From an uncultured archaeon (GTDB lineage: Archaea > Thermoproteota > Nitrososphaeria > JACIWG01): DNA of 64,000 nt. Below are positions 22,682 to 50,229 of this stretch, one piece after another; the first letter of the stretch is position 1, and every line of letters starts with the position of its first letter. Location of the stretch: NCBI GenBank assembly GCA_938034445.1, contig CALHLD010000014.1:4907-68906 (forward strand), read 5' to 3'. The notes under the pieces are model-generated. The model was not told the DNA's origin. It ran no database searches and was given only the letters and a program-made list of their open reading frames with translations. Position numbers and translations under genes: made by a program.

Positions 22682-22763
<82 letters not shown>

Positions 22764-22811: not shown

Positions 22812-24101
22812 ATGTCTGCATCTAATAAAGAATTATATGAAAGAGCTGTTAAAGTGATTCCTGCTGGTGTTACTAGGCCTTTTAGATTTTTTGAGCCTTA
22901 TCCGTTTTATGCTAGGAGGGCTTATGGTTGTAAGCTTGTTGACGTAGAAGGCAAGGAGTATGTCGACTATTGGATGGGTCACGGTGCACTAGTTTTAGGT
23001 CATATGCCAAAATGTGTTGTTGATGCTGTGAGGGAGCAGCTTGAACTAGGTTTCCATTTTGGAGTGTGTAATGAATGGGAAGTCAAGCTTGCTGAAGAGA
23101 TTTGCAGGCTTGTTCCAAGTGTTGAAATGATAAGATTCAATAATAGTGGTACAGAAGCGAATATGCACGCTATAAGGCTTGCAAGAGCCTATACAAAAAG
23201 AATGAAGATTGGCAAGTTTGCAGGACATTTTCACGGTGTTTTAGATCCACTTTATGTTGCAATAAACTGGCCATGGGCTGAACCAGAAAGTGCTGGAATG
23301 GATCCACTGGCAACAAAAAACACTGTAGTCCTACCTTTCAATGACCTTGATGCTACAGAAAAGGTTCTTAAAAGTGAAGAGCTTGCATGCGTTTTCTTCG
23401 AGCCTGTACAAGGTGCAACATGTGTACCAGCTGAAAAAGAGTTTGCTAAAGGTTTAAGAGAAGTTTGTGATAAGACAGGAACACTGCTTATTGCTGATGA
23501 AGTAATAACAGGATTTAGGCTTGCACCAGGTGGCGGTCAAGAGGTTTTGGATATTAAGCCGGATTTAACAACATTTGGTAAGGCAATAGGTGGTGGAGAA
23601 TTTCCAGTAGGCGCAGTTGGTGGTAGAGTTGAAATTATGGAGTTAATGGATCATATTAAGTATCCAAAAAGGTCTGAAAATGTTATTCAAGGAGGAACAT
23701 ACAGTGGTAACCCTCTAGTGATGAGAGCCGGCTATGAAGCAATGAAAGAATACAAAAGGGGTGTTGTCTACAATCACATAAACAAGTTGGGCGAAAGATT
23801 AAAGAAGAGTTTACAGGAAATCTTAGCAAAATATAGCATTAAAGGGTACGTAGCCGGTCTTGGGTCAATGATTAAATTACATTTTCTTAAGGAGCAGGTT
23901 AAACAGTATAATTTACAAACACTGCTCTCTAAATCAGATAAAGAAGTTGAGAAAAAATATTTCTATCATTTAATATCAAATAGTATATTGGCAATGGCGC
24001 CAGGTAAAGTGCACTTTTTCATATCTCTTCCTCACACCACCGAAGACATAGACAATCTTATAATCGTGACTGAAAATTTCATCAAAACAATAAAGCAATA
24101 A
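22812..24101 (+). CDS. hemL: Glutamate-1-semialdehyde 2,1-aminomutase
   Basis: 429 aa class III aminotransferase. NNSGTEANMHAIRLARAYT. ADEVITGFRLAPGGGQE. PLP-lysine in TTFGKAIGGG. Confidence 0.85.
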   Translation: MSASNKELYERAVKVIPAGVTRPFRFFEPYPFYARRAYGCKLVDVEGKEYVDYWMGHGALVLGHMPKCVVDAVREQLELGFHFGVCNEWEVKLAEEICRLVPSVEMIRFNNSGTEANMHAIRLARAYTKRMKIGKFAGHFHGVLDPLYVAINWPWAEPESAGMDPLATKNTVVLPFNDLDATEKVLKSEELACVFFEPVQGATCVPAEKEFAKGLREVCDKTGTLLIADEVITGFRLAPGGGQEVLDIKPDLTTFGKAIGGGEFPVGAVGGRVEIMELMDHIKYPKRSENVIQGGTYSGNPLVMRAGYEAMKEYKRGVVYNHINKLGERLKKSLQEILAKYSIKGYVAGLGSMIKLHFLKEQVKQYNLQTLLSKSDKEVEKKYFYHLISNSILAMAPGKVHFFISLPHTTEDIDNLIIVTENFIKTIKQ

Positions 24102-42501: not shown

Positions 42502-42601
42502 GCCGGGATCGCCTAGCCTGGTAGGGCGATGGCCTGGAGCCGTTTAGACTGAAAGCCATTGACTCGAAAGAGTCTTGGGGGTTCAAATCCCCCTCCCGGC
42601 G
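42502..42601 (+). tRNA. tRNA-Ser with ~14-nt intron in anticodon loop (mature loop CUGGAAA, anticodon GGA most likely)
   Basis: Acceptor GCCGGGA/TCCCGGC with discriminator G. Anticodon stem ATGGC/GCCAT enclosing 21 nt. Long variable arm GACTC-GAAA-GAGTC. T arm GGGGG-TTCAAAT-CCCCC. 100 nt total, so about 14 nt must be spliced. Confidence 0.7.
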
Positions 42602-42614
42602 CTATAATTTTATC

Positions 42615-43709
42615 CTATGGTATTATCTCAATAGAATTATTATATGTTGGATATATTAAATCATCTAATTGTATCCTACCATTTTTTGTCATCCCAATAA
42701 TTTTTGGTTTTAATCTTCTAATTTTCTCTATTAACCAAAAATTTAACTCACATATTTCTTTAAAGCCTTCTTCACCCCAAAGTTTTTCCATATAAGCATA
42801 TAAACATCTTCCACCACACTCTCTAGAAACAGAACAAGATTTACATGGTTCACCTATTAATGTATTTTCTGGCCTTCTAAAGCTCTTTAAATCTTCGGAC
42901 AATACAGCCCATTTTTCTTCAACAGCAATTGGGCAAGCTAATATTCTTCCATCAGTTGTTATTGTGACAGAATCTATACCTGAACCACATGGTGGCATGG
43001 TACCACCATATAAGTTTCTTTTAAGTATCCCTTGAAATGGTGCAATTCCTAAGATCACTTTTTCCTGAATACTTTTGAACCAGAGATTAAGAAGTTTTTC
43101 AAGATTTGGTAAATAGTTATTTTTCACCCACCCTTCAAAATTCCCCCATCTCTCACTCCATATTACATTAAGTTGCCAATGTACATGGTCAAATAATCTT
43201 GTTGAGAGTAAGTGTAAAACATCTCTGTAAATATTTCCTTCTTCTGTTAAGGTCATGCGTGCAATAAGGTCTCCCTTAAAACCCTTCTTCCTTAACAATT
43301 TTGCATTCTCTAAAACTTTATCATAAACTCCTTTTCCACGGTACATATCATTCACTTCTTTAACACCATCTATAGAAAGTAAAATAGCATCAAATTTGTT
43401 TAAAAGCTCAAACTCGGCATCTTTTATCAGAAGACCATTGGTTTGTAAAACAAATTTTTTTGCAGGTATTTCTTTAACAATCCTCTTTATGTAGCTTGAA
43501 TTTAGGATGGGTTCCCCCCCATAGAAGCAAATGTAGCATTCCTTATCCTTTTGTAAGAGTTTTTTTAAATCGTCAAACTTATACTTTATTTCCCACGGCA
43601 TCTTTTCCTTGCTAAAGCTTCCTCCACAATATCTGCAATTAAGATTACATTTCCCTGTTGTATAAATTATGTAGAGCATAGTGTTGTGATTAAACGATTT
43701 TATAGCCAA
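42615..43709 (-). CDS. Radical SAM enzyme with C-terminal SPASM domain
   Basis: 364 aa. CNLNCRYC (CxxxCxxC) SAM cluster motif at residues 21-28. C-terminal Cys-rich SPASM region CGSG...C(x)PI...CKSCSVSRECGGRCLYA. Confidence 0.8.
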   Translation of the reverse strand: MAIKSFNHNTMLYIIYTTGKCNLNCRYCGGSFSKEKMPWEIKYKFDDLKKLLQKDKECYICFYGGEPILNSSYIKRIVKEIPAKKFVLQTNGLLIKDAEFELLNKFDAILLSIDGVKEVNDMYRGKGVYDKVLENAKLLRKKGFKGDLIARMTLTEEGNIYRDVLHLLSTRLFDHVHWQLNVIWSERWGNFEGWVKNNYLPNLEKLLNLWFKSIQEKVILGIAPFQGILKRNLYGGTMPPCGSGIDSVTITTDGRILACPIAVEEKWAVLSEDLKSFRRPENTLIGEPCKSCSVSRECGGRCLYAYMEKLWGEEGFKEICELNFWLIEKIRRLKPKIIGMTKNGRIQLDDLIYPTYNNSIEIIP

Positions 43710-44088
43710 TATTTTTTAATTTCATATCCATTAAGCCATTTATTAATTCTCTAATTTTTTCTATTTTCCCCCTCACAACTAATGTTTCAAAACATTTTTC
43801 AACATCTAAATGTATGTGTAAAGTTGAAATTATTTCATGTGAATACTCGTGTTGAAGGTCTAGGAGTCTGTCCAGAAGTTCCTTTTTATGTTCAAAGATA
43901 TAACTTATTGTACCTACACATTCCTCCTCCCCCCTTCTTGATAGCATCTTATTTTCTTCTATGAACAATTCTACAGCTTTTGTGATCGCATTAGACCTTT
44001 TCCTTATACCTTTTTCTTTCATTATATTTTCTAATGTGTTTAAAACATCTTTTGGAATTGTTACACTAATTCTTTCAACCCCTTTCAA
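43690..44088 (-). CDS. nikR: NikR-family nickel-responsive transcriptional regulator
   Basis: 132 aa. N-terminal ribbon-helix-helix (ERISVTIPKDVLNTLENIMKEKGIRKRSNAITKAVELFI). C-terminal ACT-like domain with HIHLDVEKC (cf NikR HVHLDHDNC metal site). Overlaps the radical SAM start by 20 nt. Confidence 0.75.
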   Translation of the reverse strand: MKGVERISVTIPKDVLNTLENIMKEKGIRKRSNAITKAVELFIEENKMLSRRGEEECVGTISYIFEHKKELLDRLLDLQHEYSHEIISTLHIHLDVEKCFETLVVRGKIEKIRELINGLMDMKLKNIGYKIV

Positions 44089-44113
44089 ATAGGGTACATC
44101 TCCTTTTCTTTCC

Positions 44114-44142
44114 TATTAAACTTCCTGATGCTTATTAAACTT
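44114..44142. promoter_or_regulatory. Direct repeat TATTAAACTT x2 (19-bp register) in the nikR / regulator divergent promoter, a candidate operator
   Basis: Two exact 10-mers at 44114-44123 and 44133-44142, centred in the 85-nt divergent intergenic region. Confidence 0.3.
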
Positions 44143-44173
44143 TTTTAATAACTTTTCTCCCTAAAATGATAAC

Positions 44174-45118
44174 ATGTTCACTTTCTGCGAAGTTGTAGTT
44201 GAGGAACTGTTGCCTCCATTGAGGGCATTAGTGGCTCATAGGCTTAAAGAAAAAGGATACACTCAAACTCATATTTCATCTATCCTTGGGAAAACTCAAC
44301 CCTTGATAAGCCATTATTTAGATTATGACATAAAATATTGGGAAGATAAGCTTAAACAATTTGGTTTTGAAGCTGAAGTACTAGAAAGTTACATTCAGAC
44401 AATAATAAACAATATCTCCTCTGAACCCATTTTAGTAATAAAAACCTTTAACCTCATACTAATAGATATATTAAAAAGTGGTAAAATTTGTCATGTTCAT
44501 AGGCAAAAATTTCCAACACTAAACAACTGTAATATATGTGTTGAATTATTTTCTCAACATAAATTAGAGTTAAATGAAGAAAGGGAAAATCTTTTAAAGT
44601 CCTTAGAAAAGGCTGTCAAAGCAATCGAGGAATCACCATATTTTGCATCAATTGTTCCCGAAGTATATGTCAATATAGCCGCCTCACTTGACACCTGTTA
44701 TACCTTCGAGGATATTGCGACTATACCTGGTAGGATTGTGAAAGTTAAAAATAGGGTTAAAGCCCTTATGCCTCCAGAATTTGGAATAGTAAGTCATTTG
44801 ACAAAGCTTCTTTTAGATGTTAAAAAAATTGATCCATCAGTAAATGTTGTTATTAACATAAAATATGATAAAAAACTTGCTCGCATCATTTCTGACTCAA
44901 AAATTTCTTTTACAAAAACTGAGCATGAAATGGTGTATAATGAGGATGATATAATAAATTATATAAGACGTGCCATTATAAAATTTGGTACTACTCCACA
45001 GATAGTTTTTGATGAGGGAGGATTCGGTCTTGAGCCAATAACATATGTTTTTGGAAAGTCTATAGAAGAAACCATAGATCTCGTTTTAAATTTGGCAAAA
45101 ATGTATGTTCTAAAATAA
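44174..45118 (+). CDS. HTH-domain transcriptional regulator with large uncharacterised C-terminal domain (possibly ThiN-like ligand-binding domain)
   Basis: 314 aa. N-terminal XRE-like HTH (KEKGYTQTHISSILGKTQPLISHYL). About 200-aa alpha/beta C-domain without motifs I can name confidently. Confidence 0.5.
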   Translation: MFTFCEVVVEELLPPLRALVAHRLKEKGYTQTHISSILGKTQPLISHYLDYDIKYWEDKLKQFGFEAEVLESYIQTIINNISSEPILVIKTFNLILIDILKSGKICHVHRQKFPTLNNCNICVELFSQHKLELNEERENLLKSLEKAVKAIEESPYFASIVPEVYVNIAASLDTCYTFEDIATIPGRIVKVKNRVKALMPPEFGIVSHLTKLLLDVKKIDPSVNVVINIKYDKKLARIISDSKISFTKTEHEMVYNEDDIINYIRRAIIKFGTTPQIVFDEGGFGLEPITYVFGKSIEETIDLVLNLAKMYVLK

Positions 45119-48190: not shown

Positions 48191-48814
48191 ATGTCGTTAA
48201 TTAATGAATTAAAAAGTTTCATGATAAAAAAATATGCGGGCCCGCAAGAATATTTTAATCATGTACATGTAGCCTTACTAATATATTGTCTTGGAGAAAA
48301 TGCTCCAAAAAGTAGGTTCGAACTCTCTCAATTCTTGGGTCTTGGTGAAGGCTCTGTAAGAACTGTTCTTAAAAGGCTAAAAGCTAACTCTATAATTTAT
48401 ATAACAAAAAAGGGTGTTTACTTAAGCGAAAAAGGTTTAACCTTTTATAATGAATTCAAAAAGGTATTTCCCTTAATAATCGAAGATAAAATTTATTCAC
48501 TTGCACCATGCAAATATAATGTAATTGTTTTAGCAAAAAAATTAATGAATAAAGTGTCTCAAGGGATAGAGCAAAGGGATCAAGCAATAAAATATGGTGC
48601 TAATGGCGCGATTACATTAGTTTATGAAAAAGAAAGTTTCAAGTTTCCGAACACTAAGGAAAACGTAGAACAACTTTATCCAAGTGAATTTTGGAGTAAA
48701 ATAAGGTCTTTAGGGCAGCCTGAAGATGGGGATGTATTAATAATATGTTTTGCAGAAGATAGGCAAAAGGCGTATATTGGATGTTTTGCAGCTGCTTTAT
48801 CCCTTTTCTCATAA
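48191..48814 (+). CDS. Putative winged-helix DNA-binding regulator (hypothetical, DUF4443-like)
   Basis: 207 aa. wHTH-like N-terminus (SRFELSQFLGLGEGSVRTVLKRLKANSIIYITKKGVYLSEKG). Uncharacterised C-domain. Immediately upstream of the CDF transporter. Confidence 0.4.
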   Translation: MSLINELKSFMIKKYAGPQEYFNHVHVALLIYCLGENAPKSRFELSQFLGLGEGSVRTVLKRLKANSIIYITKKGVYLSEKGLTFYNEFKKVFPLIIEDKIYSLAPCKYNVIVLAKKLMNKVSQGIEQRDQAIKYGANGAITLVYEKESFKFPNTKENVEQLYPSEFWSKIRSLGQPEDGDVLIICFAEDRQKAYIGCFAAALSLFS

Positions 48815-48885
48815 ATAATTTGCTTTCAATAAAGTTATATTTGGTGGCAATACCTATATCCTCCAATAAAATATAGTGTGGTCTG

Positions 48886-50229
48886 ATGTATGACTCTAAA
48901 ATCAAGACATTAAAATTATCATTATATGCAATATTATCTGTGGTTTTAGTGGAATTTTTGGGTGGTTTATTAGCGAATAGCATGGCTGTTCTAAGCGATT
49001 CTGCTCACGCTCTATTTGATGCTTTAACAACTTTCTGGTTAATGTATGCGGTGAAACTTTCACTTAAACCTCCAGATGAGGAACACACCTATGGTCATTC
49101 GAAAATTGAAACACTAGGCAGCCTGTTTGGGGGATTATCTCTTATGGGAATAAGTTTATTCATTTTATATGAAGCCACAATAAGGTTTTTAATAGGAACA
49201 AAGGTGTCTTTAGATTTTGCTCCAATTGCAATATTTTCAGTACTATATACGATGTTTGTTGATGTATACAGAGTTTTTATCCTTTCAAAAAATGATACCA
49301 CTGTAATTAGAGCAAATCTTTTACATGCGGTAGCCGATTTTTCTTCAACAATAATCGCGCTTTTAGGCATTTCTGCAGCGTGGATGGGTTTTAGTCACTT
49401 TGACTCTATAGCCTCCATTATTCTATCTATCCTTTTAGGCTTTCTTAGCATAAGATTAATTTATACAAGTGCAGTTGAACTAAGTGATGTTGCGCCAAAA
49501 AAGGATTATCAAAAAATCAAGTCTATTATAGAAGATATGCATGATATTAAAGGCTTTAAATCTTTTAGGATGAGAAAAGTTGGCGAGCAATATTTTGTTG
49601 AAATGACTGTTCTATTATCTTCAAAGATTGATGTTGATAAAGCTCATGAAATAATATCAAAGGTTGAAAAAAGGATCGGTGACGCTATCAAAAACGTAAC
49701 TGCAACTATACACTATGAGCCTGTTGAAGAAGAGCTATCATTAACGGAGAAGATTGAAAAAATTGCTTTAAAAAATGGTTATGTGAAAGGTGTACATCAA
49801 ATTATAGTAACAAAAACCAAAGATGGTTACATATTAACCCTTCATATTGAAATGGATCCGAATATGTCCCTTTCTAAAGCTCATCAAATTTCAGAAAAAA
49901 TAGAAGAAGAAATTAAAACAGTGTTTCCACTACTACAGAAAACAACTATACACATTGAAAGCTATCCTAGAACAGATGATGGGGAAATAATATATGATGA
50001 AAGTTTAACAAATCAAATACTAAAAATACTTAATTTAAATCAAAAGGTTAAAAAAGTTTCATCAATAAGAGTGTACAGAAGCTCAGGAAACAAGTATATC
50101 GACATATCATGTTCGTTCCCAGAAAATTTGAAAATTGAAGAAGTCCATAAAGAAATAAGTTACATCGAAGGCGTGATTAAAACAACATTAGGTGAATACA
50201 TTGTTACGATACATCCTGAACCTGTATAG
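48886..50229 (+). CDS. Cation diffusion facilitator (CDF) metal efflux transporter with triplicated C-terminal domain
   Basis: 447 aa. 6-TM CDF core with metal-site motifs (SDSAHALFD in TM2, HAVADF in TM5). Followed by three tandem about 70-aa CDF C-terminal-domain-like repeats, each carrying xAHxI and an IH(Y/I/P)EP ending. Confidence 0.85.
   Translation: MYDSKIKTLKLSLYAILSVVLVEFLGGLLANSMAVLSDSAHALFDALTTFWLMYAVKLSLKPPDEEHTYGHSKIETLGSLFGGLSLMGISLFILYEATIRFLIGTKVSLDFAPIAIFSVLYTMFVDVYRVFILSKNDTTVIRANLLHAVADFSSTIIALLGISAAWMGFSHFDSIASIILSILLGFLSIRLIYTSAVELSDVAPKKDYQKIKSIIEDMHDIKGFKSFRMRKVGEQYFVEMTVLLSSKIDVDKAHEIISKVEKRIGDAIKNVTATIHYEPVEEELSLTEKIEKIALKNGYVKGVHQIIVTKTKDGYILTLHIEMDPNMSLSKAHQISEKIEEEIKTVFPLLQKTTIHIESYPRTDDGEIIYDESLTNQILKILNLNQKVKKVSSIRVYRSSGNKYIDISCSFPENLKIEEVHKEISYIEGVIKTTLGEYIVTIHPEPV

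Follow-up and report, generated by a model that had tools for sequence, protein, structure and literature searches.

Does a metal-sensing regulator whose gene abuts that of a radical S-adenosylmethionine (SAM) enzyme mark a dedicated regulator–enzyme system, and does such an arrangement say anything about what the enzyme does? The question is raised by a 64,000-nucleotide stretch of DNA from an uncultured archaeon (contig CALHLD010000014.1; the whole stretch is called the window below), whose G+C content is ~35% and whose nearest database proteins are labelled as coming from metagenome-assembled genomes of Nitrososphaeria archaea. In it, a nikR-like gene lies directly upstream of, and on the same strand as, the gene of a radical SAM enzyme with a SPASM domain (rSAM). 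A preliminary description of the sequence had read the two as a translationally coupled unit with a candidate direct-repeat operator for the regulator, and had suggested a role in alternative heme synthesis or metal-cofactor maturation. Our analysis does not support a dedicated regulator–enzyme system, nor a dedicated nickel-linked or heme function. The locus adds one new member to each of two catalogued families, whose side-by-side arrangement is restricted to one lineage, and we favor the reading that two ordinary genes have become neighbors by chance in one clade, to which we assign a rough probability of 0.65.

The gene pair in other archaeal genomes

The preliminary description left the subfamily of the radical SAM protein among the AhbD/NirJ, anSME and peptide-maturase types. 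Classification with hidden Markov models placed it in none of these but in TIGR04084 (rSAM_AF0577), which the protein matches with 441.3 bits against a cut-off of 225, over model positions 1–347 of 347. TIGR04084 has ~214 representatives (50%-identity clusters, profile E ≤ 1e-30) and occurs in at least 502 positive species genomes, and nearly all of the 150 matches listed from a search of 1.84 billion proteins are single-domain proteins of ~350–375 amino acids (aa) or shorter partials. No characterized member was found in the literature searched. TIGR04084 is described here as a strongly conserved, context-free archaeal SPASM enzyme, for which any regulatory hint is worth noting.

Genomic context was compared at the best 80 of the at least 502 TIGR04084-positive species genomes (Bathyarchaeia, Korarchaeia, Methanomethylicia, Thermofilaceae, Caldarchaeales, Thermoplasmata/DHVE2, Archaeoglobi, and Njordarchaeia) and at the best 80 of more than 590 NikR-related loci from metagenomes. 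In none of the 80 TIGR04084 loci of other archaea does a NikR homolog lie within 6 kb; likewise, no TIGR04084 enzyme stands within 4 kb at any of the 80 NikR loci, one of which (L092) is cut at a contig edge. CbiM/NikM is encoded at 20 of the 80 NikR loci, mostly directly downstream of nikR, and CbiQ and an ABC ATPase at 14 each. Around TIGR04084, no gene family is common to more than 9 of the 80 loci, and the recurrent neighbors are clade-specific: clustering gave an FAD-linked oxidase at 8 loci, a SAM synthetase together with an ArsR-like winged helix-turn-helix (wHTH) protein at 6–7, and Lrp at 3, while the neighbors in Thermofilum pendens and in Korarchaeia are restricted to families of their own. 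In a Caldarchaeales/Wolframiiraptor group, the FAD-linked oxidase gene is co-oriented with the TIGR04084 gene and stands 16–40 nt upstream of it; another Thermoproteota group has the ArsR-like wHTH gene 4–13 nt downstream of the enzyme gene and, divergent from the latter, a gene for an archaeal SAM synthetase (loci with these clade-specific neighbors: L014, L022, L034, L036, L043, L044, L048, L053; L041, L051, L054, L070–L072, L080).

The order nikR–rSAM was found only in relatives of the window, namely L087 (rSAM 95% identical), L081 (86%), L082, L088 and L089 (71–73%), and L085 and L086 (56%). There the pair belongs to a syntenic block that runs from a CDF transporter through a DUF4443 regulator, a DUF4013 protein, an NTP-transferase/cupin protein, an aminotransferase and a protein with helix-turn-helix and ThiN domains (HTH-ThiN) to NikR and the radical SAM enzyme, and within the clade the adjacency of nikR and rSAM is conserved no better than this surrounding eight-gene synteny. 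Two further relatives (L083 and L084, rSAM 57% identical) carry neither nikR nor a remnant of it, although the block, the ThiN gene and the enzyme are kept. What stands of the proposed regulator–enzyme unit is the adjacency in this lineage, together with a probable co-transcription; a dedicated system is not supported, as the adjacency is absent from all 80 TIGR04084 loci and from the 80 NikR loci examined.

Between the nikR stop codon (43690–43692) and the rSAM start codon lie 10 nt, which hold neither a Shine-Dalgarno-like sequence nor room for a promoter. The spacer is identical in L087 and measures 11 nt in L081, 101–107 nt in L082, L088 and L089, and 221 nt in L085. The spacers of L082 (5899–6001), L088 (5815–5923) and L089 (5819–5923) share a conserved TATA-like AAAGATTAAAATAAA and a conserved CCTTGCGTGGTTTGAT right before the ATG, both absent from the window; they resemble a promoter and a ribosome-binding region belonging to the enzyme gene itself. 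In the window, the last nikR codons (GGC TAT AAA ATC GTT) form a TATA-like CTATAAAA (43698–43705, minus strand; –26 to –19 from the rSAM ATG), which may be an internal promoter and which is probably a few bases too close for a leaderless transcript that includes the ATG.

Because the gap is only 10 nt long and leaves no room for a promoter, co-transcription of nikR and rSAM is plausible, and in the window lineage we regard it as probable, as a recent and local state. The enzyme gene would normally stand under its own promoter, and the spacer would have been lost in the sub-lineage of the window, L081 and L087. The nikR promoter would now drive both genes on one transcript, with re-initiation past the nikR stop codon providing for translation of rSAM. 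Any nickel control of the enzyme would be a recent by-product of gene order and would not argue for a function related to nickel or heme. The clade would illustrate how the loss of an intergenic promoter fuses an independent gene to a regulator gene, and tight spacing in a single genome is weak evidence of shared function.

Identity of the enzyme and of the regulator

The longest open reading frame (ORF) over the rSAM gene (42615–43709, minus strand) encodes 364 aa, the length given in the preliminary description. In alignment A1, which joins the window protein with 23 homologs from several phyla (49–86% identity to it), most homologs start at a methionine equivalent to residue 11 of this ORF (MLYI...), encoded by the ATG at 43679. 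The 86% identical enzyme gene of L081 has no in-frame start codon upstream of the equivalent methionine, the frame is closed by a stop one codon before it in four other relatives, and in an AlphaFold2 model of the long ORF residues 1–7 are the sole part with a predicted local distance difference test score (pLDDT) below 50. On account of the homolog starts, the upstream frame of L081, the stops in four relatives and the low pLDDT of the first residues, the true start is placed at ATG 43679, which gives a protein of 354 aa. The 20-nt overlap with nikR, from which translational coupling had been proposed, is an artefact of longest-ORF calling.

The CxxxCxxC motif (C21, C25 and C28, 364-aa numbering) and the SPASM cysteines (C241-x12-G254-x4-C259, C289-x2-C292-x5-C298-x3-C302 and C320, same numbering) are invariant in all 24 sequences of A1. 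On careful alignment, the window enzyme thus shows the full seven-cysteine SPASM pattern, C-x9-15-G-x4-C / C-x2-C-x5-C-x3-C / C, and the earlier call of a CxxxCxxC radical SAM protein with a Cys-rich SPASM domain holds, even with the Pfam SPASM model itself not reaching E ≤ 0.01 for this protein. By homology, the enzyme would bind three [4Fe-4S] clusters and would use a 5′-deoxyadenosyl radical for H-atom abstraction. Since only seven non-core cysteines are invariant, in a pattern that we take to be that of CteB, one auxiliary cluster may have an open site as in CteB. Two further stretches are invariant in A1, a DHVHWQL motif that lies past the radical SAM core and ahead of the SPASM domain (residues 173–179 of the window protein) and the extreme C-terminal tail of TIGR04084, YPxFNNxxEIIP-COOH (residues 353–364 of the window protein).

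The AlphaFold2 model of the window enzyme (pLDDT 88.6, predicted template modelling score 0.91) found its best Foldseek matches in CteB, a thioether-forming SCIFF maturase, and in anSME, with TM scores of 0.61–0.69. A sequence search among solved structures agrees, with CteB closest, alongside anSME; the alignment to CteB begins at CteB residue 102, past its RiPP recognition element (RRE). TIGR04084 is a small, highly conserved, stand-alone archaeal radical SAM/SPASM family of ~355 aa with a predicted anSME/CteB-like fold, and its substrate is most probably a protein or peptide encoded elsewhere. One protein only, P0169 (692 aa), joins an APH/choline-kinase-like phosphotransferase domain (36–230) to a TIGR04084-type enzyme (333–692, 368 bits). 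No APH gene stands near the enzyme in any other fetched locus, which leaves this fusion without support from other loci; it may be rare, or else P0169 may stem from faulty gene calling.

The closeness to CteB bears on the alternative that the enzyme matures a ribosomally synthesized and post-translationally modified peptide (RiPP), with a short unannotated ORF nearby as its precursor. CteB is the best solved homolog, and the next-best NCBIfam matches are peptide maturases such as PapB, SCIFF and CcpM, but these matches fall far under their cut-offs (PapB 91 bits against 340; SCIFF maturase, CteB-type, 67 against 425), the TIGR04084 protein begins at the radical SAM motif and has no RRE domain, and its identity of ~50% across phyla is unusual among RiPP enzymes. 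No conserved small ORF occurs within 500 nt of the enzyme across the 80 loci, in keeping with the earlier remark that a precursor-peptide ORF is absent; a small-ORF scan turned up antisense artefacts only, in the closely related loci L034, L036, L043, L049 and L053. The window itself leaves no free space, with 10 nt upstream and 12 nt downstream of the rSAM gene, and a RiPP maturase is altogether very improbable. Scarcely credible is a tetrapyrrole enzyme of the AhbD/NirJ type, tied to hemL and thereby to alternative heme synthesis. A SPASM domain is present and hemL does lie inside the window, 18.5 kb from the locus and so at about the ~18 kb first reported, yet a ribosomal-protein gene cluster stands in between, the NirJ model TIGR04051 gives the enzyme 48.5 bits against a cut-off of 515.45 (compared with 441 bits for TIGR04084), and no AhbD model is among its best 25 NCBIfam matches. 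Moreover, CteB and anSME, the closest solved relatives, are peptide or protein modifiers, and ahbA/B/C-like or nir genes were neither seen among the genes flanking the locus nor recurrent in the 80 TIGR04084 loci. The AhbD-like role is therefore abandoned, and as a lead to alternative heme synthesis, or to a new regulator–enzyme system, the locus falls away.

Two further identities were rejected. For membership in the anSME family, the model TIGR03942 gives 55.8 bits against a cut-off of 349.45. In GMGT synthase (Gms), a SPASM lipid enzyme that anaerobic archaea possess, a six-helix domain forms the N-terminal part (PMC11186832), and membership was rejected by architecture because TIGR04084 proteins begin at the radical SAM motif.

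The 132-aa product of the upstream gene is predicted to be a genuine NikR-family metal sensor with a complete His3Cys square-planar site, and the earlier NikR call, made from an HxHxxxxxC metal motif, is borne out. The protein matches Pfam NikR_C (PF08753, the ACT-like metal-binding domain) with 78.8 bits against a cut-off of 22 and the NCBIfam NikR model NF002815 with 87.9 against 83; four further NCBIfam NikR models remain under their cut-offs (104 against 111, 98 against 105, 77 against 175, and 72 against 119), and close relatives are named NikR by PGAP. Its best solved relative is NikR of Pyrococcus horikoshii (2bj1; E = 3.6e-21, residues 6–123 aligned), whose ligands H78, H89, H91 and C97 align with H80, H91, H93 and C99 of the window protein (positions counted from the alignment). 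These four residues, arranged as QH80..H91-I-H93-x5-C99, are invariant across 10 relatives, down to 29% identity (alignment A3). The His3Cys high-affinity nickel site is known from NikR structures, with H76′, H87, H89 and C95 as the ligands in E. coli. Assignment to a non-NikR CopG family lacking the metal site does not apply, as NikR models are matched and all four ligands are intact. Residues 6–50 align to the ribbon-helix-helix (RHH) domain of P. horikoshii NikR; Pfam RHH_1 does not reach E ≤ 0.01 for the window protein and is recorded for the relatives P0154, P0155 and P0157. With its metal specificity read from the ligands, the protein is a predicted nickel-type sensor. No CbiM, CbiQ or Nik gene lies within ~5 kb of the window nikR, and it has been proposed that certain NikR homologs of archaea respond to metals other than nickel (PMC3087415). 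On NikR and radical SAM enzymes together in archaea, the literature searched offered no more than a general note on archaeal NikR paralogs.

The divergent promoter and its competing readings

An 85-bp spacer separates nikR from its divergent neighbor, the HTH-ThiN gene, and holds the proposed NikR operator, two exact copies of the decamer TATTAAACTT. Both copies are where they had been reported and are the only exact ones in the whole 64 kb. Conservation is limited to the distal copy, which reads AAGTTTAATA on the nikR strand and is contained in a perfect, TATA-like inverted repeat, TTATTAAA-N4-TTTAATAA (I1). The block AAAAAAGTTTAATAAG (nikR strand), which holds the distal decamer, is identical in L081, L082, L087, L088 and L089, and the equivalent of the palindrome in L085 reads TTATAAA-N3-TTTATAG. 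The right arm stands ~27 nt upstream of the thiN-like ATG and the left arm ~45 nt upstream of the nikR TTG, positions that suggest two TATA-like boxes set back to back in a bidirectional promoter, one for nikR on the left and the other for HTH-ThiN on the right. The predicted nikR promoter would be the TATA-like TTTAATAA at 44132–44139, one half of the palindrome. In L083, which has no nikR, the nikR-side arm is degenerate and the other arm is kept, a pattern that fits the prediction of this TATA assignment. The GGAG within AAGGAGATG, 12 nt upstream of the nikR TTG, is a putative Shine-Dalgarno-like element, and L081, L082, L088 and L089 conserve a comparable GAGGATG or GGAGATG.

Among the relatives, the proximal copy survives in the 95% one alone, L087. 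At the equivalent site, L081, whose NikR is 90% identical, has GAGTTT-ATGTG (three substitutions and one deletion), L082 has GATTCAAATGG, and the sequences of L088 and L089 are unrelated; across the 70% relatives the site is unrecognizable, and the predicted DNA-reading β-strand (RISVTIP / RVSVTIP) is nearly unchanged in the relatives without this copy. Dinucleotide shuffling of the 85-bp spacer produced a direct repeat of at least 10 nt in 57 of 5000 runs (1.1%; p ~0.011), and such a repeat occurs in 21 of 1598 overlapping 85-bp segments across the 64 kb, at ~17 distinct places. The decamer pair is not beyond chance. Exact decamers are restricted to nikR promoters, and one-mismatch copies occur about once per 3.8 kb. 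No NikR-type palindrome (6–7-bp half-sites, 11–16-bp spacer) is conserved in six orthologous promoters, whose sole conserved palindrome is the TATA-like TATTAAA-N4-TTTAATA. Another inverted repeat, AATAGG-N18-CCTATT (window 44113–44118 / 44089–44094), consists of two perfect 6-bp arms in a NikR-operator-like geometry, and its CCTATT arm abuts the nikR TTG. In the 95% relative one base is mismatched, L081 lacks the repeat, and its occurrence does not exceed what chance would give. With one copy inside the TATA palindrome and the other degenerate beyond the 95% relative, the decamers are not supported as a NikR operator. The direct repeat would be made up of the TATA/B recognition element in the palindrome and of a further TATA-like copy, which is not conserved, stands close to the predicted transcription start and could act as an alternative TATA box or as an accidental regulator site.

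This promoter evidence bears most directly on the alternative of a true NikR operon, in which a NikR tetramer would bind the two decamers over the TATA box and the transcription start and would repress nikR and rSAM under ample nickel (or another metal), with the enzyme in a metal-linked role such as metalloenzyme or cofactor maturation. Such an operon would accord with the intact metal site, with the co-transcription made likely by the 10-nt gap, and with decamers found nowhere else in the 64 kb and placed where archaeal repressors usually act, which makes the proximal copy a candidate site by position. It is rather unlikely even so, because the proximal copy is lost in L081 and in L082, L088 and L089 despite the near-constant β-strand, because the repeat is direct and statistically unremarkable, because L083 and L084 do without nikR, and because no nickel-related context was seen around TIGR04084 in 80 other genomes. 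Known NikR operators, as in the E. coli NikR–DNA structure, are two-fold symmetric and not direct repeats. Clearly unlikely, too, is a capture in this sub-lineage, in which loss of the promoter-bearing spacer (~90–210 bp) brought a stand-alone enzyme, known from many archaeal lineages, into a NikR-autoregulated unit, with the decamers as operator and the enzyme under nickel control; if true, such a capture would give a first hint from physiology of what TIGR04084 does, which could be, for instance, the modification of a nickel enzyme or of a metal-handling protein. The palindrome and the decamers might also be operators of the HTH-ThiN protein, whose architecture is presumably that of a ThiR-like regulator and which would then govern its own gene and the nikR–rSAM unit. 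Its gene is the divergent neighbor throughout the clade, including L083 and L084, and the palindrome is conserved; outside the clade, an HTH_3+ThiN gene stands 3.2 kb from the TIGR04084 gene in Thermofilum pendens and within 6 kb of it in L038 (Thermofilaceae). However, 78 of the 80 other TIGR04084 loci have no ThiN gene nearby, and the arms are plain TATA-like sequences at the spacing expected of two divergent promoters, which leaves this possibility decidedly improbable. (Besides that of the window, the HTH + ThiN genes compared are L090 10302–11264 and L038 11762–12652; the T. pendens gene adjoins an ABC_cobalt/ECF-type transporter gene.)

Several points weigh against the preferred reading of two chance neighbors. 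The nikR–rSAM order persists down to 49–51% NikR and 56% rSAM identity (L085), where selection, not inertia, is possible. In canonical loci the NikR target stands directly downstream of nikR, and the enzyme could by analogy be a true target. A one-mismatch copy of the decamer is present in the nikR–rSAM spacer of both L088 and L089, and the 19-bp spacing of the decamers lies within the 18–22-bp centre-to-centre range that we take to hold for E. coli and H. pylori NikR half-sites. Finally, the contexts inspected cover, for each of the two families, only the 80 best loci, out of more than 500 genomes with TIGR04084 and more than 590 loci with NikR.

Genomic setting and comparison with known systems

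The coordinates of the features are collected in Table 1. At its downstream end, the gene pair is bounded by the intron-containing tRNA-Ser that had been described there; it is convergent with the rSAM gene, lies 12 nt from the rSAM stop codon, and was found by ARAGORN only when introns were allowed. On the other side, the HTH-ThiN gene heads the genes for the aminotransferase, the NTP-transferase/cupin protein, the DUF4013 protein, the DUF4443 regulator and the CDF transporter, in an order that is syntenic across the clade. The last two, a CDF-type cation efflux transporter (Cation_efflux + ZT_dimer) and, before it, a putative regulator (PH0730-like_N/DUF4443), occupy window positions 48191–50229, 4–6 kb from nikR, and form a second metal-homeostasis module within the syntenic block. 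A tRNA-Glu(UUC) gene (22682–22759) precedes hemL by 53 nt in the same orientation. Glu-tRNA is the starting point of the C5 pathway, and this adjacency may or may not be meaningful.

Table 1. Features of the window, with positions, strand, and the basis or particulars of each assignment
Feature	Position	Strand	Basis or particulars
Radical SAM/SPASM enzyme, TIGR04084 (rSAM_AF0577), 354 aa from ATG 43679	42615..43679	-	TIGR04084 match, alignment A1, upstream-frame check
Spacer TCACAACACT (coding strand), 10 nt, nikR stop to rSAM ATG	43680..43689	-	Sequence read
nikR-like gene, TTG start, 132 aa, RHH + NikR_C	43690..44088	-	Pfam NikR_C, NCBIfam NF002815, 2bj1 alignment
GGAG within AAGGAGATG, putative Shine-Dalgarno-like element	44101..44104	-	Sequence read
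Proximal TATTAAACTT copy, 19 bp from distal	44114..44123	+	Between predicted nikR TATA box and start codon
Perfect inverted repeat TTATTAAA-N4-TTTAATAA (I1)	44132..44151	.	
Distal TATTAAACTT copy (AAGTTTAATA on nikR strand)	44133..44142	+	Inside conserved TATA palindrome
HTH-ThiN gene, 314 aa, N-terminal HTH-like region + C-terminal ThiN domain	44174..45118	+	Pfam ThiN 143.9 bits
tRNA-Ser(GGA) with 14-nt intron (~42538-42551)	42502..42602	+	Rfam tRNA 46.1 bits; ARAGORN with intron option
hemL	22812..24101		NF000818 399.8 bits against cut-off 398

Set beside other TIGR04084 members, such as that of Thermofilum pendens (A1RWA3 / WP_011751748), the window enzyme is full-length and keeps all invariant residues, including the DHVHWQL motif and the C-terminal tail, and it is 50–57% identical to members of other phyla. 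The enzyme itself shows no difference from the family, and is unusual only in its nikR neighbor and its lost upstream spacer. With CteB (5wgg) and anSME (4k36) it shares a radical SAM core and a SPASM domain with a like cysteine pattern, at 19–24% identity. Like anSME, it lacks an N-terminal RRE, but it has seven auxiliary-cluster cysteines where anSME has eight, and relative to both enzymes it adds a 45-residue C-terminal helix and the invariant tail.

The window NikR is alike in two-domain architecture and size to the NikR proteins of P. horikoshii (2bj1), E. coli (1q5v, 2hzv) and H. pylori (2ca9), and its four nickel ligands and the surrounding LLDLQHEY...H-x-H-x5-C motif are identical to those of P. 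horikoshii NikR. It differs from the family in its setting, as its gene has no adjoining nickel/cobalt uptake genes, whereas CbiM(NikM)/CbiQ genes lie directly downstream in 20 of 80 relatives. Compared with the canonical nikR-nikMNQO (cbiMNQO) nickel uptake locus, a co-oriented gene directly follows nikR in both; there it encodes a transporter, and here a radical SAM enzyme.

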